This document shows, in pieces, positions 3,096-56,520 of a DNA stretch of 64,000 nt. The position numbers were made by a program, and so were the translations under genes. Under the pieces are notes generated by a model, which was given only the letters and a program-made list of their open reading frames with translations, did no database searches and was not told the origin of the DNA. How positions within the stretch are numbered: position 1 is the stretch's first letter; every line of letters starts with the position of its first letter. The DNA is from a virus (Duplodnaviria; Caudoviricetes), in the IMG/VR virus record IMGVR_UViG_3300042507_004311, positions 1,796 through 65,795 of that record, one strand, 5' to 3'.

Positions 3096-3139
3096 AATAG
3101 TCACCTATAAAAATATTTAAAAATAATTTGTAAAATCTC

Positions 3140-3184
3140 TTGACAAAGTGAAAAACATAAGCTATTCATAAAAGCACCTTAACC
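3140..3184 (+). promoter_or_regulatory. Sigma70-type promoter with ACCTTAACC leader
   Basis: TTGACA (3140-45), 17 nt, TATTCA, then ACCTTAACC (3176-84). About 70 bp nearly identical to the minus-strand promoter at 56375-56445. Confidence 0.75.
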
Positions 3185-3206
3185 AACCAACAAAGGAAAA
3201 GCAAAA

Positions 3207-19861: not shown

Positions 19862-19877
19862 ATGAATCCTTTTTAGT

Positions 19878-19921
19878 GGTTAAGGTATAAGCATAGTAAT
19901 TCATGAATTTGTAATTGTCAA
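19878..19921 (-). promoter_or_regulatory. Sigma70-type promoter with ACCTTAACC leader
   Basis: Minus strand TTGACA-17-TACTAT-6-ACCTTAACC. Confidence 0.8.
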
Positions 19922-20000
19922 CAAATTTTACAAGTATTTATATTTTTATTTTGTCATTGAATTGCTTAGAGTATCTAAGAAACCATGAAAGGATTTAAAA

Positions 20001-22605: not shown

Positions 22606-24174
22606 ATGATTAAATTTGAAATCAAATTAACACAATATAAACAAGATATCTACATCCAACCTAAGCAACTTGATACAAAAGATATTAGTGACTATGTCAC
22701 AGAAATCCAATACACCTATTCAATCAAAGCACCCTATGAACAAGCTACTTTACGGGCAAAAATGCCCTTCCCTGAAATGTATGCACAATTGGGGAAAACA
22801 GTAACCCCGCCTAATAGTGCTTTCTTAGATTTTATAACTATGTATGCGGATGGGTGGGCAACGATCTATGAACTAGATACCGAAGCAAATACAAGGCAAC
22901 TTAGATTTTTTGGCGTGGTTTCCTCTATAAATTCGGGGTTGGTTGCTGATCAAAATGGCTTAAAAAGTACCATTGATTTAACCATTAGTTTAAGTTCATG
23001 GATTTCTGTTTTACAAACACCTATTAAACTAATTTTATCAAGTTATTACACAGCCAAGGCGTTAACAATTAATAGCGGGGCATCTAGTGAACTTGCATAC
23101 TATGAGAAACTAGAGGCCATCTTAAAAAACTTCCTTGATCCAAAAGATGCAATTAAACAATGGTATTCTTTATTTTCTAGTTTTATGCCAGATACACAGA
23201 TTACAAATAAATCTTTGATGGATGTGATCTTTTTGACAAGAAACACCGATTTAAAGAAATATGGAGTATCTCAAAGAACCTTGACGGATATCGTTACTTT
23301 TAACTTTGATACCTTATTCCCCGCTTTAAACAATTCAATTCTTAGTGCTATGACTTCATCGTTTCAAGGTGAAATGGATTCAGTGATTGAATTATTTCCT
23401 AGCTATGAAGAAGTAACAACGAATGAGGGCGTCTTCTCTGATCAAGTGGAAACAGCCCCCCCAAAAAAACAAATACAACCTGTTCTTATTTATCGTTATA
23501 GACCATTACCAAGTAACTATCAACGCTCTGTATCCGCTATCAATGTTTCACTAAATGAGGGCGAAATTCAAAGTGAAACAAAAGTAAATGAACAAGGACA
23601 ATATGAAGTAGTGTACACACGAGAAGGCGGATCATTGAATTTTACATCTATCAAACCAGATACAAGAAAACCAATAGAGATTAACACAGTGAACAACTTA
23701 TCAATCTCTTGGAGTGCGGGGAATAGATTAAATTTGATCAATGTATCCACGCGAGCAAGTGGAGTAAATAACATTTTAGGCGTTACTACTGATTTCTATA
23801 TAGATGAAGAATCAATTAAAAAGTATGGCGTGTTTTCATATGAAGCCACTTATCCATTTTTCGGATCAACTAAAGAGAATGAGAAGATTAGAGATTTTGC
23901 CAATGAACTAACTACCTATGTGCGTTTATTGCTTGGGAGTGGTGAAACTTATGGCAACGCTCAATGTGTGTCATACTATGAACCCAAGATAAAACAGGGG
24001 GAATTTGTTCGTATTGGGGTTTCGTATGGCGTGACTAATGTAGACTATCCTAATGAGTATTACATTGGTTATTGTACACAAGTAACCCACAATCATAAAG
24101 CGTTACCAGATGGACGCATACAAAGAACATCAAGTTTCACATTAGACCGTCTACAAGTATATCAAGAGGCTTAG
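22606..24174 (+). CDS. Probable baseplate hub protein
   Basis: Position after tape measure; beta-rich, 'LRFFGVVSSI', 'SIKKYG', C-terminal 'YCTQVTHNH' as in gp27/gpD-like hubs. Confidence 0.6.
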   Translation: MIKFEIKLTQYKQDIYIQPKQLDTKDISDYVTEIQYTYSIKAPYEQATLRAKMPFPEMYAQLGKTVTPPNSAFLDFITMYADGWATIYELDTEANTRQLRFFGVVSSINSGLVADQNGLKSTIDLTISLSSWISVLQTPIKLILSSYYTAKALTINSGASSELAYYEKLEAILKNFLDPKDAIKQWYSLFSSFMPDTQITNKSLMDVIFLTRNTDLKKYGVSQRTLTDIVTFNFDTLFPALNNSILSAMTSSFQGEMDSVIELFPSYEEVTTNEGVFSDQVETAPPKKQIQPVLIYRYRPLPSNYQRSVSAINVSLNEGEIQSETKVNEQGQYEVVYTREGGSLNFTSIKPDTRKPIEINTVNNLSISWSAGNRLNLINVSTRASGVNNILGVTTDFYIDEESIKKYGVFSYEATYPFFGSTKENEKIRDFANELTTYVRLLLGSGETYGNAQCVSYYEPKIKQGEFVRIGVSYGVTNVDYPNEYYIGYCTQVTHNHKALPDGRIQRTSSFTLDRLQVYQEA

Positions 24175-31069: not shown

Positions 31070-31111
31070 TTGACAGATTAGCTTTTTTCCTATATTTTAG
31101 ATCAACCTTAA
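31070..31111 (+). promoter_or_regulatory. Sigma70-type promoter with ACCTTAA leader
   Basis: TTGACA-17-TATTTT-6-ACCTTAATCC, then AGGAG RBS. Confidence 0.65.
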
Positions 31112-31128
31112 TCCATATAGGAGAAACT

Positions 31129-34100
31129 ATGACAACCCGCACAGGTTTATTTTATCCTTATCTCTCTGAACAAGATTTAAATGCTTGGTATTCTGAACCC
31201 CTCGCATGTTCTGTTTTGCCAAATCTCAAAGTCAAGGCCGGCCAATATGGTCAAGTCTATCATATGGACTTGAAACAAGCGCTTAGAACCCTCTTTAAGA
31301 CAGATGCACAAATGCAACCCGCCCACGCTTCACAATTGATCAAAAGCGATGGGCAAACATGGCGTTTATCTGTTGACCAATTGAAAGATGTTCAAGTACA
31401 GATTGATTTCATTGCTCTTGATTTTGATGCCAAGCAAATGGACAACCCTCGTGAAAAATGGGCATGGTCAAATGATGATTTCACCGCTTGCGTTGTATCT
31501 TGGTCAAGTCACCCAATTCTTGGCAATTCATTGACCTACAAGACTAAGCACGGCCTTCGTTGTATCATCCCATTAGAAGCGCCTTTTATCTTGGATAAGG
31601 ATTTAAAGGGCAAAGATTGGGAAAAGGTTTATGAACAGATTTTAGCCATGCTTCCAAAGTCAACTTATGGGGCGTTTGATGTGTCTTGTGATACAGTGGT
31701 AAAAACTTACCGCCTGCCCCAAGTTGTGAGAGAAAAAGAACCTTTACAATCTTTTTTCTATGTCCCAAATAAACAATATGTTCATAAGTTCGACCGATTA
31801 AGTCTATTCTCTGATATTTCCTACATCACAGCACAAAGACAAAGCATTAGGGGCGTGAATAATGGCGTGATCGAAGTGTTCAAAGCAAGCAATTTATATC
31901 TTGAACCAATGAACAAACAAATCAATGGTGAATTAGTTCATAGGGTTCAATGTCCATGGCATACATTACATTCATCCACAGATGACAAAAGCACCGCAAG
32001 CGTTCTTTTCCTTGGTGATAATGGGTGGGTGTTCAATTGTATGCACGCGTCTTGTAAAGCTGAGCGCACAAAGCCCAATGCCTTAAGGAATAAATTCCCT
32101 AGAGAATGGGGCGATTTTGTACAAGATGGCTTTGAATTTGAATATGATAGCACAGATGGGCAAGGCATCATCAAAAACTTAGTAGAGATTCTTAAATCTG
32201 CTAAAGAAGCCCCTTTTTACCAAAGAGGCCATGATATTGTTCGCGTCAAGATGAACGCTGAAATTGACCAAGAAGTCATGTATATCCCAAGCGTTGAAGA
32301 AATCACAGGGTACATTTTACAATTCTCTAAGTTCTATACGGTCAAGGTAAACAAAGAGGGGATGACAAGAAATTACATAGCGCTGCAAACAAACACAATT
32401 AAGACTTATTACGCATATATCAAAGATGAACTTCCACGCATTGAGGGGATTACTAGCCTGCCACCTATCAACAACGCTTTTGAACCCTTACAAGCACATA
32501 AAGGCTTTTGCGAAGCTCAAGCATGTTTCTATGCACCTGTAAAGCATTTTAATGCGAGTTCTCTTTTAAATATTCCCTCTAGTATTAAAGAGGCTAAGGC
32601 GTCCGCATTACGATTACTAGATTTGTTTTGTGATTTCCCATTCGCACAAGAATCATATCGTCTTATGGCACTAGCAACGCTTTTCACAGCGGGATTTAGA
32701 AAGAAAATTGATGCTCCCGCCCCCTTGTTTCTAGTATCTGCCAATTCAAAAGCAACGGGGAAAACTACATTTATTCAAACAGCTTTAGCGGGTGTATATG
32801 GTATCAAGCACCCATCAATCATCATCCCCCCAGAGAAAACAGAGGAACTTGAAAAGCGCTTAGATGGCCTTCTTTTAAGTGGTGAAGATTATATAGTGAT
32901 TGACAATATCACCAATTCACTAGGAACAGGCGGGCTTGATGCTATGCTAACAAGTACCGTATATAAAACCCGTAGACTTGGTTCAAGTGAGATGACATCT
33001 GTAAAGATTAAAACATTCTTTGCGGGAACTGCAAACAATGCCGTTCTTAAAGCTGATACAGATAGACGCGTTATCACTGTTCGACTAGTATCTGATCTTG
33101 ATAACCCCGCTGAACGAAGCGACTTTAAACACAAAGACATTGTGAGTTATGCTTCTCAAAATACTAGTTCTATTTGGCGGGACATGCTTACTATTCAAAA
33201 GAGTTTTCAAGAACATGCTGATCTTGATGCCTTGAGTATTGAACTTAGTTCAATAGGCAGTTTTACCGAATGGGCTGATTGGGTTCAATATCCTGTTGCA
33301 TGGGTTGGAAAGCTGCTAGGATTTGAAAAGATTGATATTGTTGAAATGTCCCGCTCTGAAATTGTATCAAGGGAAAATGATGATCTTTCAAATCTTTTTC
33401 AATCTTTATACGCCTATCAAAAAGATGTGGGTGTTGGTCAAACTTGGACAAGTCAAGACTTATTAAACGCTCTCAAGACTAAGAAACAAGATGATTCACA
33501 TCTTGAAATGCTACAAGAAACTTTATTACTGGGCGTTTCTCTTAATATTGTTAATTTAGGTCGTAGATTGATGCGTTATAAAGATAAAGTCTGCAACGGC
33601 TATAAGTTACAATTACATAGATTACCCGGTAGAAATAACGCTTTTAGTCTTGTAAAGGTATCACCCCCAAGAAAAGAAACCTTGCCAACAGACTTTACAC
33701 AATACCCAACGCCAAAGGTTGAGGCACAAGCACCAATACAACAAGCACAAGCACCAATACAACAAGCACAAGTAAAAGCGCTTGAGAGTGTACAAGTCGA
33801 CCCCCTACAAGCGATTTTACAAGCATGTGGATATAAAGAGGATACAGACAAAAAGCAAGCATGTAACTTTTTACAAGCGGGCAATAATTGCGGGCTTTCT
33901 AGTGATCGTTGTGAGGCTGAATTTATTTATCAAATACAAGAACCTGTCAAACAAGAACCCATCAAACAAGAACCCATAGAGGAAGAAACACAATTGTTTA
34001 ATGTTCCCTCTATTGATCCTTTAACACGCGTATTCACTGAGCAATTAAAACTTAGATTATCCACACTACTCAAAGAACTTAAGAAACCCGCTGAAATCGT

Positions 34101-34497
34101 GGATATCCTGATTAAAGAGAATTTCCCAGTTGATAAAAACAAATGGACAAGCATAAAAGTGAATAAAGCGATCGAGTTCTTTGGCCTTAGCAAAGAGAAA
34201 AAGAGCGGGGCGGAGTTGAAACTTGAAAAGCGTGGTGTTTATGATCATAGGTGGCTTCAAGGTTTCCCTACAACAAGAGTTTCTAAAGAAGTCTATTTAT
34301 CACAGTATGCGGAAGGCGTTCCAATGGGCGGGGTGACTTGTGACGCAAATAGCACTAAAAAGAGTATCAAATTTGATGCTAATGATTTGATCAAAAGCGT
34401 TCTAGGCGTTAGCAGCGTCAAAGATGCACTTGCTAAAGCGACAACCCCCGAACAAAGAGAACAGGCATCAAAAGAAAAGTACGGTGATAAAGAATAA
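31129..34497 (+). CDS. Primase-helicase (AEP-like primase + Zn finger + P-loop helicase)
   Basis: 'FIALDFD' (DxD), 'YKTKHGLR', Zn-binding 'CPWHTLH...FNCMHASC', Walker A 'ANSKATGKTT', Walker B 'IVIDNI', 'DTDRR'. Confidence 0.85.
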   Translation: MTTRTGLFYPYLSEQDLNAWYSEPLACSVLPNLKVKAGQYGQVYHMDLKQALRTLFKTDAQMQPAHASQLIKSDGQTWRLSVDQLKDVQVQIDFIALDFDAKQMDNPREKWAWSNDDFTACVVSWSSHPILGNSLTYKTKHGLRCIIPLEAPFILDKDLKGKDWEKVYEQILAMLPKSTYGAFDVSCDTVVKTYRLPQVVREKEPLQSFFYVPNKQYVHKFDRLSLFSDISYITAQRQSIRGVNNGVIEVFKASNLYLEPMNKQINGELVHRVQCPWHTLHSSTDDKSTASVLFLGDNGWVFNCMHASCKAERTKPNALRNKFPREWGDFVQDGFEFEYDSTDGQGIIKNLVEILKSAKEAPFYQRGHDIVRVKMNAEIDQEVMYIPSVEEITGYILQFSKFYTVKVNKEGMTRNYIALQTNTIKTYYAYIKDELPRIEGITSLPPINNAFEPLQAHKGFCEAQACFYAPVKHFNASSLLNIPSSIKEAKASALRLLDLFCDFPFAQESYRLMALATLFTAGFRKKIDAPAPLFLVSANSKATGKTTFIQTALAGVYGIKHPSIIIPPEKTEELEKRLDGLLLSGEDYIVIDNITNSLGTGGLDAMLTSTVYKTRRLGSSEMTSVKIKTFFAGTANNAVLKADTDRRVITVRLVSDLDNPAERSDFKHKDIVSYASQNTSSIWRDMLTIQKSFQEHADLDALSIELSSIGSFTEWADWVQYPVAWVGKLLGFEKIDIVEMSRSEIVSRENDDLSNLFQSLYAYQKDVGVGQTWTSQDLLNALKTKKQDDSHLEMLQETLLLGVSLNIVNLGRRLMRYKDKVCNGYKLQLHRLPGRNNAFSLVKVSPPRKETLPTDFTQYPTPKVEAQAPIQQAQAPIQQAQVKALESVQVDPLQAILQACGYKEDTDKKQACNFLQAGNNCGLSSDRCEAEFIYQIQEPVKQEPIKQEPIEEETQLFNVPSIDPLTRVFTEQLKLRLSTLLKELKKPAEIVDILIKENFPVDKNKWTSIKVNKAIEFFGLSKEKKSGAELKLEKRGVYDHRWLQGFPTTRVSKEVYLSQYAEGVPMGGVTCDANSTKKSIKFDANDLIKSVLGVSSVKDALAKATTPEQREQASKEKYGDKE

Positions 34498-35648
34498 TGG
34501 GCGAATTTAAGCATGTTTCCGCATCACAGATTAAAACTTATCTTGATTGCCCCCGCAAGTGGTATCTTCAAAAGATTGTAGGTTTGCCAAGTCCATCTAG
34601 TCCATCCACTGAGCTAGGTAAAGAAATCCATAGCGTCATTGAGGCCTATTTTAGAGATGGCTTAGATATCCCTGATTCGGATATTGGGCAAATTGCCAAG
34701 CGTGGGCTTGAGTTTCTCCCAAATCCTAGTGAGGATTTATCAATAGAACTAGGTATTCATGAGGCACTACCAATTAAAGAATCCCCTATTCCCATTATGG
34801 GATTTATTGACTTGCTCCATAAGGGTCAGGGGTTTGTAAGAATCATTGACCATAAAACCACAAGTTCAAAGAAGTATACAAAGACTTCAAAAGAATTGGG
34901 TTATGATGTTCAAATGAATATCTATGCTAAGGCCGTTTTTGACAATATGCCAATGCTTGAACAGGTTGAACTTGTGCATGTGTACTATGGTACAAAAACG
35001 CCCTCTTGGTCATCTAGTGTTTCATATGTACTTACTAGACAAGAGAACGAAGAGCAATTTATCGAGATTGTAAAAACTATTGACAAGATGAAATTGGATG
35101 CTATAAAGGAAGAAACCACTATTGAAAAGAACTTAGATTCTTGTTTCAAGTTTGGCGGTTGCCCTTATCGCTCCGAATGTCTTTTAAAAAGAAAAGAGAT
35201 TGACACTATGACACAGACACAAGGCCAAGACCTAGCAAGCAAGTTAGGACTCACAGCACCAAAAACACAAGTTGCACCAGTTGCACCAGTTGCCCCCCAA
35301 GTAGAGGCTAAGATTCAATCACAAATTGAAAAACCTTTAGCAATTGTTCCACCATATGAACGCCGATCATTGTTTATTGGTTGTATGCCACAAAAAAGCA
35401 CCATCGCCCCCATATCATTCTATGAAGCGTTTAAAGAAGAAATTCAGATGATTTGTACTCAGTTTCAAGTGTTTCATTTATCTCAAGTTGATTATGGGAA
35501 AGGGTGGAATGCTTTCCAATCGTTACTAGCTTCACAAGGTTGGTCAAAGACAACAGCAAGCATCTACATTGATCCAATGAGTGATGAATATACAAGAGTA
35601 GGAAGTCTTTTAATTGCCAATGCAAACACAGTAATTCGAAGAGTCTAA
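34497..35648 (+). CDS. PD-(D/E)XK exonuclease (RecB/Cas4-like)
   Basis: 'SASQIKTYLDCPRKW', 'GKEIH', 'GFIDL', 'IIDHKT', 'QMNIY', 'CFKFGGCPYRSEC'. Confidence 0.9.
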   Translation: MGEFKHVSASQIKTYLDCPRKWYLQKIVGLPSPSSPSTELGKEIHSVIEAYFRDGLDIPDSDIGQIAKRGLEFLPNPSEDLSIELGIHEALPIKESPIPIMGFIDLLHKGQGFVRIIDHKTTSSKKYTKTSKELGYDVQMNIYAKAVFDNMPMLEQVELVHVYYGTKTPSWSSSVSYVLTRQENEEQFIEIVKTIDKMKLDAIKEETTIEKNLDSCFKFGGCPYRSECLLKRKEIDTMTQTQGQDLASKLGLTAPKTQVAPVAPVAPQVEAKIQSQIEKPLAIVPPYERRSLFIGCMPQKSTIAPISFYEAFKEEIQMICTQFQVFHLSQVDYGKGWNAFQSLLASQGWSKTTASIYIDPMSDEYTRVGSLLIANANTVIRRV

Positions 35649-35655
35649 TATAAAA

Positions 35656-37287
35656 ATGATTGCTACTGAATGGGAACGGTTAAAATTAGTTCCCCTAGAT
35701 AAAATTGAACATAATCAAGATTTAACAAAATACCTAAAGAAACCAGAAGGCAAACAAACGCTTAGGCCTATTCAAAATGAAATGTTATGGCAAGCAATTG
35801 ATCGAAAAGGTTTACTAGGATTTGTTGCATGTGGTGAAGGTAAAACACTAGTATCTATGCTTCTCCCTACTGTTTTAAGATCGGAACGCCCGCTTTTATT
35901 GCTGCCTGCGTTCATGATTACTCAACATCTCTCAGATAGAACTGCGTATGGGCAACATTGGGATTTTAAAGATATGAAAGTTTTATCTTATGAAACCCTT
36001 AGTTCTCCCAAGCGATTAAAAGAGCTTGAGGATTATGCCCCCGATCTTATTATATGCGATGAAGCGCATTGTTTACGCAATTTAAAGAGTGCAAGAGTAA
36101 GACGACTAGATAACTATATGATCAAGTTTATGCCTAAATTTTGCGCTTTAAGTGGCACATTGGTCGCAAGATCAATCAGTGACTATTCGCATTTGGCATC
36201 TTGGGCGTTGGGGGTTTATTCCCCAATTCCTAGGATTGCCCAGATCGTACAAGAATGGTGCTTATGTATAGAGGAAGGACTTCCATCTAAGTTAGTAAGC
36301 AATATTGTTAAGGGTGGATCAAAAGACGAGTATTTAGCACGCTTACAAAGATCAAAAGGGATTGTTATTACTAAGAGTCAAGAGGTTGGGGCATCATTGA
36401 TTATCAACAAAGAAAAAATTAGCATGCCTACTAGTCTTAAAAAGAGTATTGCAATCGCTATGAGTACGGGGGATATCGTAAGCGCAACGAATGAGATACT
36501 TGATAATGAACAGCTTGAAGCCATGTTTCAATCAAGCGATTTATGGACGCCAAAAGATTCATTTATGCTTAGAGTATGGGGGCAAATCTCTTGCGGGTTT
36601 GTGTATACGTGGGATTGGGAAGATAGAGAAATTGATCAACAATGGATTGAGTACAAAAGGGCGTGGGGGCGTGCTTCTTTTCAAATGCTTGAACGATCAA
36701 GTTTTGATAGTGTTTCTTTGATTTCACAGTATGCAGAAACCCCCCAAGCGCCTAAATCTCTTGCGATTGCATGGCAAAATTGGAAAAGTGTAAAAGATAG
36801 AGAACCCCCTAAGACAAAAGCGATTTGGCTTGATACATATCTTATTGACTTTGTGAAAAAGTGGACGCTTGAACAGTCTGAACCTGTTTTAATATGGTGC
36901 GCATATTCCGCCCTAGCGCATAAGCTCAAAGAGGCTTTGAATTGTGAGATGTATGGTGCAGGTGACGAGGATGCTAAAAGATTGGATACAAATAAACACA
37001 TAGCACATACGGCAATCATGAGTATTCAAGCACATGGCACAGGGAAGAATTTACAATCTTGGCACAATCAAATCATCGTTCACCCATTAGCACACCCCAG
37101 CACTTGGGAACAATTACTAGCAAGAACACACAGACCGGGGCAATTGGCGGATGAAGTGCATATGTCAATTTTAAACATGGGATTATTTGCTAAAGCGTTT
37201 AATAAGGCTTTGAAAGATGCCCAATATATCCAAGATACAACAGGGCAAAAACAAAGATTGATCTATGCAACAAAGAATAATAAATAA
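35656..37287 (+). CDS. SF2 (SNF2-like) DNA helicase
   Basis: 'LRPIQ', 'CGEGKT', 'ICDEAH', 'LSGT', 'GTGKNLQ', 'QLLARTHRPGQ'. Confidence 0.9.
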   Translation: MIATEWERLKLVPLDKIEHNQDLTKYLKKPEGKQTLRPIQNEMLWQAIDRKGLLGFVACGEGKTLVSMLLPTVLRSERPLLLLPAFMITQHLSDRTAYGQHWDFKDMKVLSYETLSSPKRLKELEDYAPDLIICDEAHCLRNLKSARVRRLDNYMIKFMPKFCALSGTLVARSISDYSHLASWALGVYSPIPRIAQIVQEWCLCIEEGLPSKLVSNIVKGGSKDEYLARLQRSKGIVITKSQEVGASLIINKEKISMPTSLKKSIAIAMSTGDIVSATNEILDNEQLEAMFQSSDLWTPKDSFMLRVWGQISCGFVYTWDWEDREIDQQWIEYKRAWGRASFQMLERSSFDSVSLISQYAETPQAPKSLAIAWQNWKSVKDREPPKTKAIWLDTYLIDFVKKWTLEQSEPVLIWCAYSALAHKLKEALNCEMYGAGDEDAKRLDTNKHIAHTAIMSIQAHGTGKNLQSWHNQIIVHPLAHPSTWEQLLARTHRPGQLADEVHMSILNMGLFAKAFNKALKDAQYIQDTTGQKQRLIYATKNNK

Positions 37288-37300
37288 TTTGTAAAAATAT

Positions 37301-37328
37301 TTGACAAGTTAGAAAACTATGCTAAATT
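37301..37328 (+). promoter_or_regulatory. Sigma70-type promoter for SSB-like gene
   Basis: TTGACA-16-TAAATT with TG extended -10. Confidence 0.7.
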
Positions 37329-37369
37329 GAATTTATCAAACATGCTCAACCCTTAAAAGGACATGACAA

Positions 37370-37882
37370 ATGACATTTGACATTAGTAAATATGCTGCAC
37401 AAATTGCACAAGCAACACAAGCACGCGTTTCCCGTGATAACATCGCTCAAGGTGATCACATCCTACAAATCGAAGCCGTTAAAGGTTTAACATCTCAATC
37501 AGATGGATCAGATTACATCATCATTGAGGCGTCTATCGTATCAAGCACAACCATGAAAGCAGGTACACCTGTTAAGCATATGTATAAGCTCACAGGCGTA
37601 CCCGCTTGGAAACAAAAAGGTAACATTGAGGCTCTCAAGTCTTTTGTCTGTGCTGTCTTGCCACCTGAATACAGAGCGCAAGTGACCGCTGAAATCGTGA
37701 TCAATGCTTGTAATGGCGGTTCTGAATCTGTGCTTGTTAATCATCAAGTTCGTTGTCGTGTGATCGAAAAGAAAAGCAGAAACGATAAGGCGTTTCTTGA
37801 AACTAATTGGATGTCACTTGACACAAGCGCAGCAGTTCAAGCCCAAAGTGATGAAGATGATGATGGTAACTTGCCATTCTAA
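37370..37882 (+). CDS. Probable single-stranded DNA-binding protein
   Basis: Between helicase and polymerase; acidic tail 'DEDDDGNLPF'. Confidence 0.65.
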   Translation: MTFDISKYAAQIAQATQARVSRDNIAQGDHILQIEAVKGLTSQSDGSDYIIIEASIVSSTTMKAGTPVKHMYKLTGVPAWKQKGNIEALKSFVCAVLPPEYRAQVTAEIVINACNGGSESVLVNHQVRCRVIEKKSRNDKAFLETNWMSLDTSAAVQAQSDEDDDGNLPF

Positions 37883-37911
37883 AAAAAAGTGCAAACCTAT
37901 GAAATAAATGC

Positions 37912-37939
37912 TTGACAAACTTGTTACATAGGATATATT
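37912..37939 (+). promoter_or_regulatory. Sigma70-type promoter of candidate sRNA
   Basis: TTGACA-16-TATATT, with no ORF before the next terminator. Confidence 0.7.
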
Positions 37940-37945
37940 CAAATT

Positions 37946-38017
37946 ATCTCCTTTCGAGGGGGTTAAGGTGAAAAGAAAGCCCGTGCGTCCATTTCTTGGC
38001 CGTGCGGGTTTTTTTTT
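37946..38017 (+). ncRNA. Candidate small regulatory RNA (~70 nt), antisense to conserved phage leaders
   Basis: Promoter, then CUCCU-UUCG-AGGGG hairpin, then GGUUAAGGUG, then terminator. Reverse complement reads CACCTTAACC-6-AAAGGA, matching several 5' UTRs. Confidence 0.6.
37976..38017 (+). terminator. Intrinsic terminator
   Basis: gcccgtgcg.cca-tttct-tgg.cgtgcgggt stem followed by a T9 run. Confidence 0.9.
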
Positions 38018-38040
38018 ATTTATTTACTTTTTAAAATTTG

Positions 38041-38082
38041 TTGACAAAGCTAAAAACATTTCATAGAATAAAGCACCTTAAC
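38041..38082 (+). promoter_or_regulatory. Sigma70-type promoter of DNA polymerase with ACCTTAAC leader
   Basis: TTGACA-17-TAGAAT-5-ACCTTAAC. Confidence 0.85.
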
Positions 38083-38098
38083 ACACCAAAGGAAAACT

Positions 38099-39985
38099 AT
38101 GAAATTCATCGCCATCGACACAGAAACCCACTTAATCGTGGATAACAATGTTCCCGCCCCTGTATGCTTGACCGCCTTTTTACTTGATGATCAAGGGCAA
38201 TCAGAATCCTTTATAGCAAGATTTGATCAAACCTTGTACGCTTGGTTAAAACATGTCTTTGCAGATACCAATAAAACAATCATCATGCACAATGCAGCAT
38301 TTGATTTATCGGTAATTTGTGCAACGTACCCAAGCCTATATCCCCAAGTTTTCAAAGCGCTTAAAGATGGGCGTGTTCATGATACTGGTATCATTGAGAA
38401 ACTCCACAAAATCGCACATGGGGGCGAGGGCGTGGGCGTTATGGATGTCAACGGGACTAAAGTCGCTAAACTAAGCCTAGCGGGACTAGTTTACAAGTAC
38501 TTCATGATTGATATTGCTTCATCTAAACAGGCGGATTCTGTAAGGTATCAATACGATTCTTTTCGTAATCAATCGCTTGATATTTGGTCACAAGAAGCAA
38601 AGATTTACGCCGTCTATGATGCAATGTACACTATGCTTGTTTATCAAGTACAAATGCAACAAATCCCCCAAGATGAAATTGTTGGGCATGCTAAACAAGT
38701 ATCCTATGATTTTGCTTTACGATTGACGGGATCGCATGGGATATGTGTTGACCCCTCTAAAGTTTCATCTGTAAAAAAGAGCTTAGAGGATGCGATCAAA
38801 GAACAAGAGCAGCCTTTACTTGAACTTGGTATCTTAAAGGTTGAGAAGAACGAGATCAAAGAAAATAAGACGATTATTAAAGCACGGGTTCAACAAGCCT
38901 ATGAGAGCATGAAAAAAGAGATTAAAAAGACCGATTCCGGTGCTATTAGTATGGATAAATCTGCACTAGAGGAAAGCGAAGACCCAGAACTCTTATCGCT
39001 CTTAGAATATCGAGAAGTGACCAAGCTACTCAGTACATACATTGATAGTGTTGAGATGGTCAATTTGCCTTTGATGGATGGGCGTTTAAGATGCGATTAT
39101 GAAGTACTTCAAGCAACAGGGCGAACAAGCTCCCGTGATCCCAACCTTCAAAATTTGCCCCGTCGTGAAGGCATCCGAGATTGTTTTGTACCTAGTAAAG
39201 GTTTTGTATTTGTTGCATGTGATTATGACGCAGCCGAACTTAGAACACTTGCTCAATGTCACTACTCAATGACAGGCAACGAAAGCCCTTTATTAAGCAT
39301 GTACAAGCATGATTCGGGGTTTGATCCGCATACATGGTTTGCATGTAAAATGCTAAATATTAGCTATGAGGAAGGTATGACTAGGAAATCACAAGGCGAC
39401 AAAGAAATCAAGAAACAACGACAAAGGGCAAAGGCTTGTAATTTTGGCTTTCCCGGCGGTATGGGGGCAAGTTCATTTATGGCGTATGCTAAGGGTTACG
39501 GCGTTACTTTGACTAAAGACGAAGCACAAGACCTAAAGAACCAATGGTTTGACGCTTGGCAATTATGGGATTGGTTGGATCATGCCCAAGACGCCCAAGA
39601 AGAAGGATTTGTTATTATCCCCCAATCACACAGAAAGCGGGGGCGTGTGTCCTTTACTCAAGCCTGTAATACGCCGTTTCAAGGCTTGGCAAGCGATGGG
39701 GCAAAAGAGGCATTATTTAACGTTGCGCTTGAGTGTTTCGCTGATTCTGATAGTCCCTTGTACAATTCCCGCCCTGTTGTCTTTATTCATGATGAAATCA
39801 TCATTGAATCACCTGAAAACAATGCACAAGCAGCCGCAAGACGCTTACAACAAATCATGATTGCTTCTATGCGTTCTTTTTGCCCAGATACACCCATAGA
39901 GGCGTCGCCCACGCTTATGCGTTCATGGTCAAAAAATGCTGAAAGTAAATTAGATGTCAATGGTAATTTTACGATTTGGGAATAA
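38099..39985 (+). CDS. polA: Family A DNA polymerase with 3'-5' exonuclease
   Basis: 'IAIDTET', 'HNAAFD', 'TGRTSSRDPNLQN', 'CDYDAAELR', 'RQRAKACNFG', 'NTPFQG', 'FIHDE'. Confidence 0.95.
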   Translation: MKFIAIDTETHLIVDNNVPAPVCLTAFLLDDQGQSESFIARFDQTLYAWLKHVFADTNKTIIMHNAAFDLSVICATYPSLYPQVFKALKDGRVHDTGIIEKLHKIAHGGEGVGVMDVNGTKVAKLSLAGLVYKYFMIDIASSKQADSVRYQYDSFRNQSLDIWSQEAKIYAVYDAMYTMLVYQVQMQQIPQDEIVGHAKQVSYDFALRLTGSHGICVDPSKVSSVKKSLEDAIKEQEQPLLELGILKVEKNEIKENKTIIKARVQQAYESMKKEIKKTDSGAISMDKSALEESEDPELLSLLEYREVTKLLSTYIDSVEMVNLPLMDGRLRCDYEVLQATGRTSSRDPNLQNLPRREGIRDCFVPSKGFVFVACDYDAAELRTLAQCHYSMTGNESPLLSMYKHDSGFDPHTWFACKMLNISYEEGMTRKSQGDKEIKKQRQRAKACNFGFPGGMGASSFMAYAKGYGVTLTKDEAQDLKNQWFDAWQLWDWLDHAQDAQEEGFVIIPQSHRKRGRVSFTQACNTPFQGLASDGAKEALFNVALECFADSDSPLYNSRPVVFIHDEIIIESPENNAQAAARRLQQIMIASMRSFCPDTPIEASPTLMRSWSKNAESKLDVNGNFTIWE

Positions 39986-40264
39986 TTAGATTGTTTTCTT
40001 TGCTTGTAGGTTTACTAATCTCTCTTCAATCCTACCAAGTAAAACTTTAATATCTGAGATTTCTGAGACAAGTTTATCTTGCTTTGTATCCATAGATTTA
40101 AGCTCTTGTTCAATAGAAACATGTTTATCTGATAAACTCTTGATCTCTTGCTCTAGTCTTACTAATCGTTGTTCTTTGTCACTTAGTGATTTGTAGATAG
40201 GATACACAGAGGAAATCAAAGTAGATAAGCCCGCAATTGAAATTGTAATTGTTTGATTATCCAT
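39986..40264 (-). CDS. Putative holin-like membrane protein
   Basis: N-terminal TM helix plus coiled coil, adjacent to endolysin. Confidence 0.5.
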   Translation of the reverse strand: MDNQTITISIAGLSTLISSVYPIYKSLSDKEQRLVRLEQEIKSLSDKHVSIEQELKSMDTKQDKLVSEISDIKVLLGRIEERLVNLQAKKTI

Positions 40265-40268
40265 CTTG

Positions 40269-40751
40269 TCACCCCTTCCATTGTGTCAATGTTCCACGAA
40301 CATCATAATGTACAAAAGTTTCATAGATACCTACCCCGCCTTTTTTCATCTTGCCTTGATCAATCAAGCGTAGAATAGTTTGTTGTACCTGTAAAGGTGA
40401 TAAACCATCTACACGGATATCCGAGGCCTTTGCTTGTAGGTGCTGACTATTCTTTGACCCCTTGCATTGTGCATTTAATTGAGCATCCCTATAACCACCG
40501 CCGGGGATGATCTTGATAGGGCGTTTTAATTCGTTTCTCAAAACTTGTAGGTTCTCAAGCACTTCTTGGGCGTTGTCCATTAGCTCGCTTGGGATAACAC
40601 AATTTGCATACTCCATCTCTTTGATAGAGAAGTTTTCTGTTCCATAGGTTTTATTTTCCAAAGGCACAGAATCCCCCTGCAATTGCTCCAATTGTACTAA
40701 ATCCGAGATTGAAGTATTCTGAGATTTTGATGTTCTTGTTCTCACAGCCAT
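40269..40751 (-). CDS. Endolysin, peptidase M15A family
   Basis: 'GGYRDAQLN', 'SQHLQAKASD', 'GVGIYETFVHYDVRG'. True start may be downstream (TTG near 40661). Confidence 0.88.
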   Translation of the reverse strand: MAVRTRTSKSQNTSISDLVQLEQLQGDSVPLENKTYGTENFSIKEMEYANCVIPSELMDNAQEVLENLQVLRNELKRPIKIIPGGGYRDAQLNAQCKGSKNSQHLQAKASDIRVDGLSPLQVQQTILRLIDQGKMKKGGVGIYETFVHYDVRGTLTQWKG

Positions 40752-40929
40752 TTAAAGCCTCTTTCAGTTCGTCATTTTGTTGTTTTAGTTGTCTATTCTC
40801 TTCTTTTTGTCTTGCAATCTCAAGTTTCAAGTTTCTAAGCTCTTGAGCAAATAAATTCACTAAGGCATCCTCGTCGCTTGCTTGTATGGGTGACAAAAGA
40901 ATCAATGTAAAAAGTACTAGGTTTTTCAT
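40651..40929 (-). CDS. Secreted coiled-coil protein with C-terminal TM segment (spanin-like candidate)
   Basis: Signal peptide MKNLVLFTLILLSPIQA, coiled coil, C-terminal 'LGFSTIGAIAGGFCAF'; in the lysis cassette. Confidence 0.5.
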   Translation of the reverse strand: MKNLVLFTLILLSPIQASDEDALVNLFAQELRNLKLEIARQKEENRQLKQQNDELKEALNGCENKNIKISEYFNLGFSTIGAIAGGFCAFGK

Positions 40930-40930
40930 G

Positions 40931-41842
40931 TTAAATCTTTACAAACTCATTTTGAGAGATCGGAACTTCTACCCATCTAATTCCCGACCATACCCATTTA
41001 AAACTAGTTCTCATTCCTTGATCTGAGCTGAGGCCTGTTGTTGAATACCCTCGTACACTACTGACAAGCGTTTGACCTGACGGTGGGCTTGTGATTGTGA
41101 TTGCCCCCGTGCTTGGATTCAATTGCATAAGACCAAACCAATCCCCCGCTTGTGTTGGTGTCGGTGCATTATATGTAGCGGATGTAGTAGTTGACGTAGT
41201 ATTAACCCAAAATTTGTTAAGTGTGATGCTTGATGCTTTTTCAGAAGCATCTAAAGTTCTAACTGTCGGGTTTTGGTAGGTTGTAGCATCAATCGCATAG
41301 ATTGTAATGTTTGATCGATGATTAGCGGTGGGGGCTGAGGATGTTTGCTTATTATCAAAATAAACATTTCCCATACTTGCCCAACCTGCCCCCCTTGCGA
41401 TTAATTTTACAGTTTGGCTACTTGCTGAACAATCTAAGAACCTAAGCCCACGATATGATCCATTTGACGCCCCAGCCCCCTCATTACCATTTATATAATG
41501 ACTTTGAAAGCGGGGTAATACATCTGAACCGTTGATGTTCCATGTTAAATATGGAGATCCATTATATGTAGTTCCTGATGAATAATAGAGGTATGGATCA
41601 AGTACAAAGTACCAACCTTGAGGGAAAGTAATGCCGTTTGTGTTTACTATGATACCTTCAATATATTTCCCAATATAATGAGCTTGAGTAGTAAAAAATT
41701 GATGTAATTCTACACCGTCTAAAATGCGGGGGTTATATGTGGGGTCTTGTGTGCCGGGGGTAGATTGAAAAGTGGTTTCAAGTGCAAAAATTGATTGCCC
41801 CGTTGAAAGATTGGGGATATACGACATAATTAAACCTCCCAA
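40931..41842 (-). CDS. Tail-fibre-associated protein
   Basis: Ser/Thr/Gly-rich beta protein downstream of the fibre; probable start MSYIPN (41827). Confidence 0.6.
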   Translation of the reverse strand: MGGLIMSYIPNLSTGQSIFALETTFQSTPGTQDPTYNPRILDGVELHQFFTTQAHYIGKYIEGIIVNTNGITFPQGWYFVLDPYLYYSSGTTYNGSPYLTWNINGSDVLPRFQSHYINGNEGAGASNGSYRGLRFLDCSASSQTVKLIARGAGWASMGNVYFDNKQTSSAPTANHRSNITIYAIDATTYQNPTVRTLDASEKASSITLNKFWVNTTSTTTSATYNAPTPTQAGDWFGLMQLNPSTGAITITSPPSGQTLVSSVRGYSTTGLSSDQGMRTSFKWVWSGIRWVEVPISQNEFVKI

Positions 41843-42222
41843 TCTGTTCTTGCGGTTTCGCTATTACTAGTTTGATTTGAAAAATTATCATGGCCAATAT
41901 ATCTACTAGATGCGATGCCTTGTGAGATGGGTGGATAGTATTTTTCTGAAGCGGTCGCATTAGTGAACCACATACATCTATGAGTCAAATGAGTATTTGA
42001 TCCTAAAGTATTTTCAAAATTATTAGATACCGCTGAAGCTGAGAAAGAGGCGTCTAAATCCATTCTAAGAAATGTCACCCCAAACGTGTTTGTATGTCTT
42101 CTAGTATTATGAAACGTACTCATATTAGGGAAAACTTGAGTGTACACGTTTGAATAGAAATGATGCACGAATTTGTGATTTCGTGAGGTTTGTCCATCAT
42201 AGCTCATAGCGGAAACCTCCAA
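41830..42222 (-). CDS. Small tail-fibre-associated protein
   Basis: ORF coupled to neighbours; probable start MSYDG (42207) after GGAGG. Confidence 0.55.
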   Translation of the reverse strand: MEVSAMSYDGQTSRNHKFVHHFYSNVYTQVFPNMSTFHNTRRHTNTFGVTFLRMDLDASFSASAVSNNFENTLGSNTHLTHRCMWFTNATASEKYYPPISQGIASSRYIGHDNFSNQTSNSETARTDWEV

Positions 42223-46606: not shown

Positions 46607-48310
46607 TTACTTTTCATCATCAAAATCATTTACAAAATCCCAACTTGTCAAGATTTCATGTAAATCTTTGTTTTCTTGATCACTCAACCCGTTGACCGTG
46701 TTATCAAGATCATCTATGTATTCACGATCTCCAAAACTAATCACATGTTGAAACCTTTCTTCTCTTAGTACACAATGTGCGATCCATAAAGACATGACTG
46801 TATCATCGTGCTTTTCCCTACCTAAGCCCCAAAGCTCTTGAATCAATGGGTCACTAAGCTCTTTATCAATTGTACTCCTGCTAGGGATGATCACTTTACC
46901 ATTCTCAAAAAGTACAGATAGAGAAGTAACACCATCCCATGGACTTGCCTTTTTTGCCCCCGTTGTCAAGTGTGGACGCAAAGGTAAATCAGTAGTTTGT
47001 TTCAATCCTACATAGTGCAATTCACCAAACGCATTACGCTCAACAGCTACGGCGTAAACTTTGCCCCTAAAGCGTTCATATTCTCTTACTACGGCGTTTT
47101 TTAGTTCGCTTGTACTCATGCCCCGCTTTCTAAATAAACCTAGTAAATAGTGATCGCCCGTTCGTCTATCTCTTGCCCATGTAGTCCCAACGGTGAAATC
47201 GCTATCTTTTGATTCGGCATGTTGGGCGTTCTGTACTAGTGAAAAATCCCACCCTTGCACAATATCAAGTTGCTCAGCGTTAATATGCGCGGGGATTTCA
47301 TAGAAACTTAGATTTCTTCCTCTCTCTTGTGCTTGTTGTAACCATTCCCATTTAAAAGCGGAGGCCGAATCGTCTTGAACTTGGTTTAAAAATTCCCTTG
47401 CAAACATTTGCGACCCTATGGTCATCCGCTCCTCCATAAGCATCTCAAAAGGCCTATGTTCTTTCCACAAGACGACGGGGTCACCCACAACCTTGACCCC
47501 TGTTATTCTTGCCTTACCATTGATTTCTTTTGTTTCATATTCATAGCTTTCAGGCCATTTTATGATAGCGGGGTTCTCAAGTACCGACCATGTAGGATCA
47601 ACTTTTAAATGCCCATAGAGATCATCATGATGCTTCCTTGTACCGATTACAATCATCAGCCCGCCGGGTTCTAACATTGGTTGAACAGTACCACGAAACC
47701 ACCGCCTTGTTTTCTCTCTACTGGTTAAAGAGTAGACTGTGTCATCATCCTCCAAGTCATCCGCTAAGATAATATCAAAGTGCGCCCCTGTAATTGCTCC
47801 ACCTGAACCAATCGCTTGAATCGTAGGATCAACGCTATGATTTTTTCTTTTTACATAGATTTGTCTTTGTGTCCAACTTTCCCCGCCACCTTCAAAAGGT
47901 AAACAACCCGCATCTAAATCACTTGCCCAATCTTCTATGATCTTTTCACTTTTAAGAAGTTCTTTAACGCGTGACATACGGCGTTCAGCTTGGGGGGCGC
48001 TTGCACAAATCCACAAGATACGAACATCCCTATTTAAACAAATTGCTCTTAGTGCATATGTTACCGCTAGTTCTGTTTTACCATGAGAGCGGGGGGCAAG
48101 TAGTAGGATTCTATTTTTTCGCCGTTCTTTGATTGCTTGGTTGCGTTCATCCTCCAACCTTTTAAGCCAATCCGCTCTATGCTTTGCGTATTGCATACCA
48201 CAATAATAAACATCAAAGAATAAAGGCGAATGGGATGCAAGTAAACGCCGTTCTGTTGGTGTACTTGGTAAAATCATTTTAGGATTTGACATTTTACTTT
48301 CATTTGCCAT
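46607..48310 (-). CDS. terL: Terminase large subunit
   Basis: Walker A 'APRSHGKT', 'GGAITGAHFDIILADD', 'IGTRKH', nuclease 'QGWDF', 'KHDDTVMSLW'. Confidence 0.93.
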   Translation of the reverse strand: MANESKMSNPKMILPSTPTERRLLASHSPLFFDVYYCGMQYAKHRADWLKRLEDERNQAIKERRKNRILLLAPRSHGKTELAVTYALRAICLNRDVRILWICASAPQAERRMSRVKELLKSEKIIEDWASDLDAGCLPFEGGGESWTQRQIYVKRKNHSVDPTIQAIGSGGAITGAHFDIILADDLEDDDTVYSLTSREKTRRWFRGTVQPMLEPGGLMIVIGTRKHHDDLYGHLKVDPTWSVLENPAIIKWPESYEYETKEINGKARITGVKVVGDPVVLWKEHRPFEMLMEERMTIGSQMFAREFLNQVQDDSASAFKWEWLQQAQERGRNLSFYEIPAHINAEQLDIVQGWDFSLVQNAQHAESKDSDFTVGTTWARDRRTGDHYLLGLFRKRGMSTSELKNAVVREYERFRGKVYAVAVERNAFGELHYVGLKQTTDLPLRPHLTTGAKKASPWDGVTSLSVLFENGKVIIPSRSTIDKELSDPLIQELWGLGREKHDDTVMSLWIAHCVLREERFQHVISFGDREYIDDLDNTVNGLSDQENKDLHEILTSWDFVNDFDDEK

Positions 48311-48345
48311 ACTTAACCACCTTTCACAAACACAGGATTAAATTT

Positions 48346-48822
48346 ATGCTATGTTATTTATTCATCTTATCACTATTTTCACATGATCAATCTGTTGCTT
48401 ATTCAAAGAAATTAGGCGCTTCTTTTCAAGATCGATTAGAAACTTGTAGACTTGTGGTCAAAGAAGCAAAGGATCAAGCTGTTGATCCTATTTTAGCCGT
48501 TTCAATCGCTTTCCAAGAATCTAAATTCACAAAAAACGCCGTTGCTTTTGACGGTAAAGGCTTTGGGGCTATGCAGGCAACGCCCCGCCTATGGTGTGAA
48601 AAAAAGAAATTTGAAAATTGCGATTTAATTAAAGCCGGTGTAAAAGCATTAAGAACTTACCTAGAGTTACATGATTGGGACGAGTACAAAGCCATAAAAG
48701 CCTATGCCGGCAAAGGCAAAAAAGCCCATGAGTATGCTCTGAGGATTATGAGGATCAAGACAAAAACGAAAACCCTACTAAAGGATTTGAACGATGAAAA
48801 TCTTATTATCATTGAAAACTAA
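48346..48822 (+). CDS. Lytic transglycosylase (SLT family)
   Basis: 'VDPILAVSIAFQESKF', 'GFGAMQ', 'AIKAY'; N-terminal hydrophobic signal; ATG at 48346. Confidence 0.8.
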   Translation: MLCYLFILSLFSHDQSVAYSKKLGASFQDRLETCRLVVKEAKDQAVDPILAVSIAFQESKFTKNAVAFDGKGFGAMQATPRLWCEKKKFENCDLIKAGVKALRTYLELHDWDEYKAIKAYAGKGKKAHEYALRIMRIKTKTKTLLKDLNDENLIIIEN

Positions 48823-56353: not shown

Positions 56354-56378
56354 TTACTTTGTCCTTTTTGACGTGGTT

Positions 56379-56423
56379 GGTTAAGGTACTTTTAGTAATA
56401 GCTCAAGGTTTTCACTTTGTCAA
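56379..56423 (-). promoter_or_regulatory. Sigma70-type promoter with ACCTTAACC leader
   Basis: Minus strand TTGACA-17-TATTAC-7-ACCTTAACC; near copy of 3120-3188. Confidence 0.75.
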
Positions 56424-56520
56424 GAGATTTTACAGATTATTTTTATAGGCAACCTAGCCCCCCTATTTTCTTTGATATATGCACCTATTCAAACTAAGAT
56501 CAAATAGAAAGGATTTGACC

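Follow-up and report, generated by a model that had tools for sequence, protein, structure and literature searches.

The DNA analysed here, called the window throughout, is a 64,000-nucleotide (nt) stretch of a phage genome (bases 1796-65795 of a 65,795-bp IMG/VR virus record; 97% complete, 38.8% G+C). At positions 37912-38017, ahead of the DNA polymerase gene polA, it carries a conserved, non-coding promoter-to-terminator element, and the complementarity of this unit to leaders shared by other transcription units of the phage is far beyond chance. The best reading of the unit is a trans-acting small RNA (sRNA) directed against those leaders; the unit would be transcribed, its RNA would act on distant mRNAs and the effect would be repressive, a reading to which we give slightly less than an even chance. 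A fuller history, in which a cis-acting polA leader directed against the polA ribosome-binding site (RBS) was cut loose by insertion of a promoter cassette and re-tuned into a trans-acting master RNA with a grip on at least five operons of a virulent-type phage, at the extreme mRNA 5' end and at the ribosome site, is offered more tentatively, as a possibility with the balance of probability against it.

We propose that the unit would make a short non-coding RNA of ~65-72 nt, ended by its terminator. The RNA stretch GGUUAAGG would pair with the first 8-10 bases (ACCUUAACC) of mRNAs that start at a sigma70-type promoter cassette, and the 5' arm, freed from a weak hairpin, would pair with the Shine-Dalgarno (SD) region of the same mRNAs. 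With the ribosome site covered, translation would be lowered jointly in at least five DNA-metabolism or accessory operons. On rare read-through the RNA would act on polA in cis too.

The unit promoter (TTGACA at 37912-37917, a 16-nt spacer and TATATT at 37934-37939, + strand) agrees with the consensus at 11 of 12 positions; it was judged by consensus and conservation alone, and it does not have the TGTAAAAT box of the early cassette. The predicted RNA (37946-38018, +; ~72 nt) would start at A37946, 7 nt after the -10, and end within the T run. Its 73-nt form folds at -32.7 kcal/mol (z -4.61), which none of 200 shuffles equals; a promoter followed after ~70 nt by a strong terminator, as an earlier sequence-only reading of this DNA had described it, is borne out. 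The 5' part of the transcript is UCUCCU-UUCG-AGGGGG (37947-37962) and is predicted to fold into the hairpin CUCCU-UUCG-AGGGG (37948-37961, +). It begins with the anti-SD arm UCUCCUUU (37947-37954, +), which in cofolds pairs with AAAGGA or AGGAGA of the leaders, and is followed by the seed GGUUAAGGUG (also written GGTTAAGGTG; 37961-37970, +), the reverse complement of CACCTTAACC. Read as a whole, the reverse complement of 37947-37970 is CACCTTAACC-CCCTCG-AAAGGAGA. The A-rich linker AAAAGAAAG (37971-37979, +) lengthens the terminator stem in the fold by pairing with the U run, which makes the modelled terminator two-way. The predicted intrinsic terminator itself (37980-38017, +) consists of CCCGUGCG and CGUGCGGG with inner CCA/UGG and U9; its arms are CCCGTGCG (37980-37987) and CGTGCGGG (38001-38008), and T9 lies at 38009-38017. 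A simple terminator scan does not list it because the loop measures 13 nt. The same terminator closes the upstream operon (37370-37882 and the preceding genes), and the unit sequence is also the 3' end of that operon's mRNA.

PolA searches located the unit, between the same two flanking genes, in eight further contigs, three from IMG/VR (L005, L006 and L007) and five from JGI metagenomes (L034, L035, L036, L037 and L039). Two sequence types exist. Type A comprises the window, L039, L005 and L034; type B (L006, L035, L036, L037 and L007) reads CUCC-GUAGU-GGAG-GUUAAGGCG and has another terminator after it. Common to the two types are the promoter hexamers, CUCC, GGUUAAGG and the terminator frame, while the spacer and flanks have diverged: the hexamers are kept in all seven aligned relatives (with one -10 change within type B), and the 16-nt promoter spacer has fixed A-versus-B differences at 8 of its 16 positions. 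The GGTTAAGG portion of the seed is invariant in all nine clade sequences. In the RNA body only 1 of 32 columns varies within type A and 1 of 30 within type B, as against 12 of 31 and 14 of 26 in the upstream flank and 14 of 31 and 9 of 41 between the T run and the polA -35; as judged from these alignments, the RNA body is under purifying selection. For every one of the 17 stem pairs tested, pairing holds in each of the seven aligned sequences. Four of these lie in the 5' hairpin (three invariant, one changed from U-G to U-A) and 13 in the terminator, where 100% of cells are paired and two pairs have changed on both sides in a compensatory manner. Scans of IMG/VR and JGI metagenomes returned no third sequence type of the unit. 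Phage records contain no near match and no PolA above 28% identity over the full length, and GTDB genomes hold no PolA above 39% identity; PolA relatives at 63-67% identity do exist (P0003-P0006).

Two mechanical open reading frames (ORFs) overlap the unit in the window, a 32-amino-acid (aa) GTG ORF at 37968-38066, which runs through the terminator, and a 42-aa minus-strand ORF at 37942-37814. No ORF of 20 aa or more covers the unit in the type B relative L006, and neither of the two is found in type B. The earlier statement that the unit has no ORF is thus right as to conserved ORFs and too broad for the window itself; a small-protein reading was rejected on the same ground. The 42-aa ORF also bears on the idea that the unit is an inert relic, left by a promoter-leader cassette that came to lie in inverted orientation behind a promoter and ahead of the operon terminator. 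The minus strand is indeed leader-like, with an SD and a TTG start for this ORF, and cassettes are duplicated in the genome. A relic would, however, hardly be expected to keep its body so strongly within each type or to share its position and promoter/terminator frame with relatives at 45-50% PolA identity; besides the loss of the ORF from type B, the minus strand has no promoter (the best candidate, TTCACC-18-GATAAT, reaches 9 of 12). We think a relic very improbable indeed. Rfam assigns no family at gathering score anywhere in the window; over 37850-38120 its 26 matches at E up to 10 are all far below threshold (the best is PyrR, 25.3 against 54 bits) and are driven by the terminator.

The predicted targets share a leader that carries the motif ACCTTAAC. 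This motif occurs seven times in the window against 1.9 expected, a number reached by 1 of 100 shuffles. Four copies stand in sense behind a TTGACA promoter, 5-7 nt from its -10, one is inverted and lies in the unit, and two are in coding sequence (7521, minus strand; 26749, plus strand), which upholds the earlier observation that the motif is in sense at the leaders and inverted here. The clade has four long genomes (G000-G003), and in each of them (C/T/A)ACCTTAAC(C) is found at the strong TTGACA promoters, 5-7 nt downstream of the -10; this gives 18 leaders in total, and the TGTAAAAT box stands upstream of most of these motif-bearing promoters. The motif thus coincides with the predicted +1, and the start codons follow 24 to 39 nt further on. 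Such a regularity would also be produced by a DNA operator. Under this explanation ACCTTAACC would be the site of a regulator at the start of early promoters, the inverted copy would be one more operator and the RNA complementarity would be incidental; the fixed distance of 5-7 nt from the -10 in 18 promoters of four genomes is in keeping with it, as is the invariance of the motif while spacers diverge. Yet ACCTTAACC is asymmetric rather than palindromic and lacks a second half-site in its vicinity, the unit has its copy in opposite orientation ~15-24 nt after the predicted start, and conservation extends over the whole 30-32-nt body, not 9 nt alone. A second block (the anti-SD, or CACTACGGAG in type B) is moreover shared too, at variable spacing. 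We accord the operator a small probability.

Five leaders of the window have this design, and the matches quoted for them in the sequence-only reading are all exact as written. Pairing between the RNA and the leaders was expressed as cofold energy net of each partner's own structure, on start regions, and ranks are among all called start regions; as the leaders were picked by motif, these ranks gauge strength and are not independent discovery. The first leader (3140-3206, +; promoter and CACCTTAACC-7-AAAGGA) precedes ORF 3207, pairs at -14.6 kcal/mol and ranks 1 of 70. The second (19862-19926, -; TACCTTAACC-5-AAAGGA after its promoter) stands before a 208-aa gene and a methyltransferase operon, with -14.0 kcal/mol and rank 2 of 70. 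The third (31070-31128, +; promoter and AACCTTAATCC-4-AGGAGA) belongs to a 1122-aa primase-like gene whose operon also holds an exonuclease and a helicase. This leader forms ten contiguous pairs, one of them U-G, and pairs at -13.4 kcal/mol from +1; it falls outside the top 12 of 70 when windows of -45..+15 are used. The fourth is the leader of polA (38041-38098, +). It supports the earlier claim that polA has a promoter of its own downstream of the unit, since the early-promoter cassette here provides TTGACA-17-TAGAAT at 38041-38069 (11 of 12), with the motif ACCTTAAC at 38075-38082 and AAAGGA at 38088-38093 (+). At -10.2 kcal/mol the polA leader pairs least strongly among the five of G000, and it is third of five in G002. 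The fifth leader (56354-56428, -; promoter and TACCTTAACC-11-AAAGGA) precedes a resolvase/ThyX operon, with -13.5 kcal/mol and rank 4 of 70.

Net cofold energies of the window's five leaders thus range from -10.2 to -14.6 kcal/mol. Averaged over five leaders, the net energy is -13.1 in G000 against -5.9 +/- 1.7 for 200 shuffled RNA bodies, and -15.7 in G002 against -4.6 +/- 1.7 for 200 shuffles; none of the 200 reaches the native value in either genome. Leaders with the motif rank 1, 2, 4 and 10 of 70 in G000, 1-5 of 55 in G002 and 1, 2, 4, 6 and 12 of 71 in G003. The predicted pairing is bipartite and collinear in 13 of the 15 complexes inspected: the seed takes up mRNA bases +1 to +9 and the SD is bound by the 5' arm. 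In the two exceptions (G002 12528 and G003 11417) it is CCACUA of the leader, not the SD, that pairs with the loop and 3' arm. The two pairing blocks are 2-6 nt apart in the RNA and 4-20 nt apart in the leaders, and such variable spacing is easier to reconcile with RNA pairing, where an internal loop is tolerated, than with a protein site. The two variable positions of the target face wobble-capable bases, U opposite A or G (as in type B polA, ACCUUAGCC) and G opposite C or U (as in primase, ACCUUAAUCC), which also fits RNA pairing. A duplex at the extreme 5' end of an mRNA need not repress. It might instead shield the mRNA from 5'-end-dependent decay and raise early expression, a principle familiar from Bacillus (RoxS/yflS) and from stabilising 5' stem-loops. 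The seed does pair with +1 to +9 to give a duplex flush with the 5' end, and the motif stands exactly at the predicted start in 18 promoters of four genomes. Since, however, the 5' arm is predicted to lie over the SD in most complexes, and the ancestral cis form described below would sequester the SD and AUG of polA, repression is favoured and a positive regulator seems to us quite improbable.

The two lineages offer one comparison of the RNA with its leaders. Type A RNA has UCUCCUUU, and the leaders of type A genomes mostly have AAAGGA (UCCUUU:AAAGGA). Type B RNA has CUCCGUAGUG, and type B genomes have leaders with CACUACGGAG or CACUAUGGAG (CUCCGUAGUG:CACUACGGAG). Allowing one mismatch at most, CACTACGGAG occurs in G002 only at two leaders and the RNA locus and in G003 at one leader and the RNA locus, and is absent from G000 and G001. 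In type B, CUCCGUAGUG matches leaders 20 kb away exactly and does not so match the polA leader. When the RNAs were swapped, the RNA of a genome's own type paired better at 14 of 18 leaders, orthologous leaders among these not being independent. Covariation of seed and leader, which the sequence-only reading had named as a check, can accordingly be seen, in a single contrast, for the 5' arm, which differs between the two lineages in step with the leaders, and not for the seed and motif, which are invariant and cannot covary.

More distant relatives indicate where the unit may have come from, which the sequence-only reading had missed: in both position and design the unit is the homologue of a polA leader that acts in cis against the RBS. 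At five loci where PolA is 45-50% identical (L046, L048, L051, L047 and L049; 49-62% G+C), a promoter-like site, TTGAC(T/A) or TTGAAT, 17 nt and TA...A, comes right after the ...PF stop of the upstream gene. There follow an RNA of ~50-70 nt with a 5' segment, a terminator with an imperfect U run and, 10-25 nt on, the SD of polA (L046:2866-3000, L048:2864-3000, L051:520-660, L047:2836-3000 and L049:2857-3003). No promoter stands between terminator and polA, and the early cassette is missing. In the read-through RNAs the first bases are predicted to fold onto the SD or start codon of polA and to enclose the terminator (-45 to -50 kcal/mol, z -3.2 to -7.1). The anti-RBS pairs differ by lineage (CUCUCUCC:GGAGAGAG, UUUCUUGUCUC:GAGACAGGAGA and CAUGAGUGUCUCC:GGAGACACAUAUG); L051 uses a different 5' segment, UUUCUUGUCUC, whose target overlaps that of the others within the ribosome site. 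As modelled, the arrangement resembles a structured leader or attenuator, conserved ahead of a phage DNA polymerase gene. Among PolA relatives at 36-40% identity, the order of promoter, anti-RBS segment and terminator was found in none of the 16 loci read (the best-scoring new ones of 80), which would limit the design to the clade at 45-100% PolA identity.

From these comparisons we infer that the unit was at first a leader and attenuator of polA, acting in cis against its RBS. Distant relatives would retain the ancestral type, in which a homologous promoter and a 5' anti-RBS segment run through a leaky terminator straight into polA. In the lineage of the window, a cassette would have been placed between terminator and polA, leaving a stand-alone RNA that was matched to the cassette's shared leader. 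The position of the cassette, together with a perfect U run (U9 or U7 in the window clade, as against UUUCGUUU, UUUCAUUUUU and UUUUGUGU in distant relatives), suggests that the old leader is now made as a separate RNA.

The same homology could mean that the unit has never left its cis role. It would then be the remnant of the old polA leader, acting only on read-through from the unit promoter or the upstream operon, with its 5' segment folding onto the polA leader and SD. The consequence would be that polA is translated solely from its own promoter, as a form of insulation or dosage control, and the matches to other leaders would be a by-product of the shared cassette. In addition to the homologous cis design at five distant loci, this explanation draws on the read-through RNAs of the window and of L006, which have the same topology (5' segment on polA leader and SD, terminator enclosed; z -3.66 and -5.99), so that in the full-length RNA the 5' segment is predicted to pair with the SD and start of polA as in an anti-SD leader. 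A transcript with no promoter between leader and gene is nevertheless seen in L046, L047, L048, L049 and L051 and not in the window, where polA has its 11/12 promoter at 38041-38069, and with U9 or U7 the terminator is stronger than in the distant relatives, so that little read-through is expected. We prefer action in trans to action in cis alone because the dedicated promoter, which a cis-only element does not need, is conserved, because the terminator is strong, because the RNA fits the leader consensus, and the other leaders, better than it fits polA's own leader, and because type B CUCCGUAGUG has its exact match at leaders 20 kb away. Action in cis alone is in our judgement unlikely. The trans-acting sRNA, by comparison, has the features general to its kind: a promoter of its own (by consensus and conservation), an intrinsic terminator, no conserved ORF, and a conserved seed complementary to five leaders in the window.

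Several results weigh against the trans-acting sRNA or against parts of it. (i) A naive duplex scan of all 45-nt windows of the four genomes placed none of the five leaders among the 14 best non-self windows in G000 and two in G002; it was noisy, did not make the leaders distinct in G000 and G001, and was replaced by cofolding on start regions. (ii) The primase leader of G003, ACCUUACACC, breaks the seed (-9.0) and is one of the exceptions in the swap test, as is the AAAGGA leader of G003, which pairs better with type A RNA. (iii) Only two sequence types exist, which amounts to one independent A/B contrast; invariance of both seed and leader motif means that there is no true seed covariation, and the leaders show no counterpart to a U-to-C change that type B has just after the seed, which leaves C opposite A. 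(iv) The stability of the 5' hairpin does not exceed that of shuffled sequences (z 0.00; 92 of 200). The toehold mechanism of the sequence-only reading, in which seed pairing opens this hairpin to release a sequestered anti-SD, is thus a conjecture about a weak structure. Its seed, described as exposed, is so in part, as the first three bases (G-G-U) lie inside the hairpin stem in the fold of the window (type A). (v) The anti-RBS matches of the distant relatives are individually modest, being equalled in 64, 46 and 55 of 2000 shuffles (Watson-Crick 8-mers); with G-U allowed that of L051 is reached in 14 of 2000, and that of L047 is not significant (233 of 2000). (vi) No result supports the toehold and hairpin-opening step or the early-to-late timing suggested earlier, and a timing switch is left unexplained because the promoter of the RNA is of the same host type as those of its targets.

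The upstream neighbour of the unit is a 170-aa gene (37370-37882, +) and the downstream neighbour is polA (38099-39985), whose product matches Pfam DNA_pol_A at 1.5e-44. The former had been labelled ssb. Its acidic tail ...DDDGNLPF, ending in PF, looks SSB-like and is the sole trait to favour the label; Pfam and PHROG give the gene no match. Its own promoter region (37301-37369, +) is without the motif at +1, has CCCTTAAAAGGA 19 nt further on, with TTAA running into the SD, and comes 9th of 70 start regions in the strength of its predicted pairing to the RNA (-8.4 kcal/mol). Another TTGACA promoter of the window (48286-48350, +) has the start region ACCTTTCAC, a variant of the motif, at rank 7 of 70 (-10.1 kcal/mol). 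On the contig of L005 (G001), an extra TGTAAAAA-TTGACA promoter at 23235-23330 has a different leader with the inverted repeat AAAATCTTGT...ACAAGATTTT; it precedes a 161-aa gene upstream of the ssb-like gene. Within the window, the cassettes at 3118-3190 (+), ahead of ORF 3207, and 56375-56445 (-), ahead of the resolvase/ThyX operon, are near-identical over ~70 nt, from the TGTAAAAT box to AACCAAC. A scan with the cassette pattern returned 23 stretches, 5 in contigs already examined, 7 in further IMG/VR fragments of the same clade that do not include the polA region and 11 in unrelated contexts. The cassette behaves as repeated, perhaps mobile, DNA.

Public sequencing runs that contain the phage are lake or freshwater metagenomes. 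Of 24 runs found, 6 are RNA or possibly RNA by label, all available as assembled contigs. Over 34000-42000, contigs of the RNA-labelled runs X17, X15, X16 and X20 leave 37738-38004 uncovered, and contigs cannot reveal small RNAs or the starts and ends of transcripts. In wastewater runs X15 and X16, short pieces of 39680-39807 and 41343-41383 reach very high depth and are flanked on either side by unrelated sequence; these pieces are probably shared with other, more abundant DNA.

Known phage RNAs provide parallels for the way the unit would work. The c4 RNA of P1/P7, as described in a review of the field, is a phage RNA of ~77 nt that blocks translation by pairing at more than one complementary stretch around the RBS (PMC12197685). 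The unit resembles it in having two or more stretches complementary to the region around the target RBS, given the bipartite pairing predicted here, and this is a likeness in working, not membership of a family. The c4 RNA serves immunity in temperate phages and acts on the ant transcript, whereas the unit belongs to a replication module and has its own promoter and terminator. It further differs from c4 in having at least five dispersed predicted target operons and in placing one pairing block at the extreme mRNA 5' end. Rfam C4 has no match and does not figure even among the 26 sub-threshold matches at 37850-38120 (E up to 10). Grouped with the c4 antisense RNA is the CI RNA of satellite P4. 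The sar RNA of P22, as the same review has it, is a phage RNA of 68/69 nt that pairs with an mRNA start region and lowers its translation (PMC12197685). By analogy, the unit would work most like c4 of P1/P7 and sar of P22. While sar is a true cis-encoded antisense RNA of one gene, the RNA of the window would be encoded away from four of its five predicted targets.

Bacterial sRNAs such as GcvB and RybB use one conserved single-stranded seed against many mRNAs and end in an intrinsic terminator with a U tail. The unit is similar in its one seed, many mRNAs and U-tailed terminator, but its targets share their match as copies of one promoter-leader cassette. The nearest anti-SD leaders that act in cis are the polA leaders of L046, L047, L048, L049 and L051, with the same place and the same order of promoter, 5' anti-RBS segment and terminator; the window differs from them in the cassette before polA, the perfect U run and an RNA that matches a leader common to other operons. 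T4 RegB is an endoribonuclease that achieves coordinated inactivation of the phage's own early mRNAs through their SD regions. Unlike this protein nuclease, the element of the window would act by RNA pairing.

A repeated motif with one inverted copy has a precedent in Cluster K mycobacteriophages, whose SAS motif GGGATAGGAGCCC is 13 bp long and lies 3-7 bp before start codons (PMC3203893). As the paper describes it, SAS is short and asymmetric, stands in one orientation before many non-structural genes and has a single inverted copy in several genomes; its function is left open, with 'either RNA or protein' as binding partner (PMC3203893). The window shares with SAS a repeated start-region motif with a single inverted copy. 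The motif of the window lies at the predicted +1, whereas SAS, in that paper's account, is not at transcription starts and comes with no described RNA partner. The two have no sequence relation: the motif of the window differs from GGGATAGGAGCCC and stands 24 to 39 nt, not 3-7 bp, before start codons.

To our knowledge, most of the phage small RNAs described so far have either a single phage gene (immunity, antirepressor) or host genes as their targets. The terms 'early gene' and 'leader' do not occur in the main text of the review (PMC12197685). Among the matches listed for literature on phage sRNAs that act on early genes, no such design appears. If the trans-acting sRNA is real, an RNA that shuts down or protects a whole set of a lytic-type phage's own operons through the leader they have in common would add a new layer to the temporal control of phages, and would also be a compact, portable 'one RNA, many operons' switch. 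The locus offers a testable evolutionary route from cis leader to trans regulator, of which the relatives seem to hold both states. Set beside c4, sar, the bacterial sRNAs and SAS, what is particular to the locus of the window is this apparent cis-to-trans history together with pairing at the very 5' end of the mRNA.

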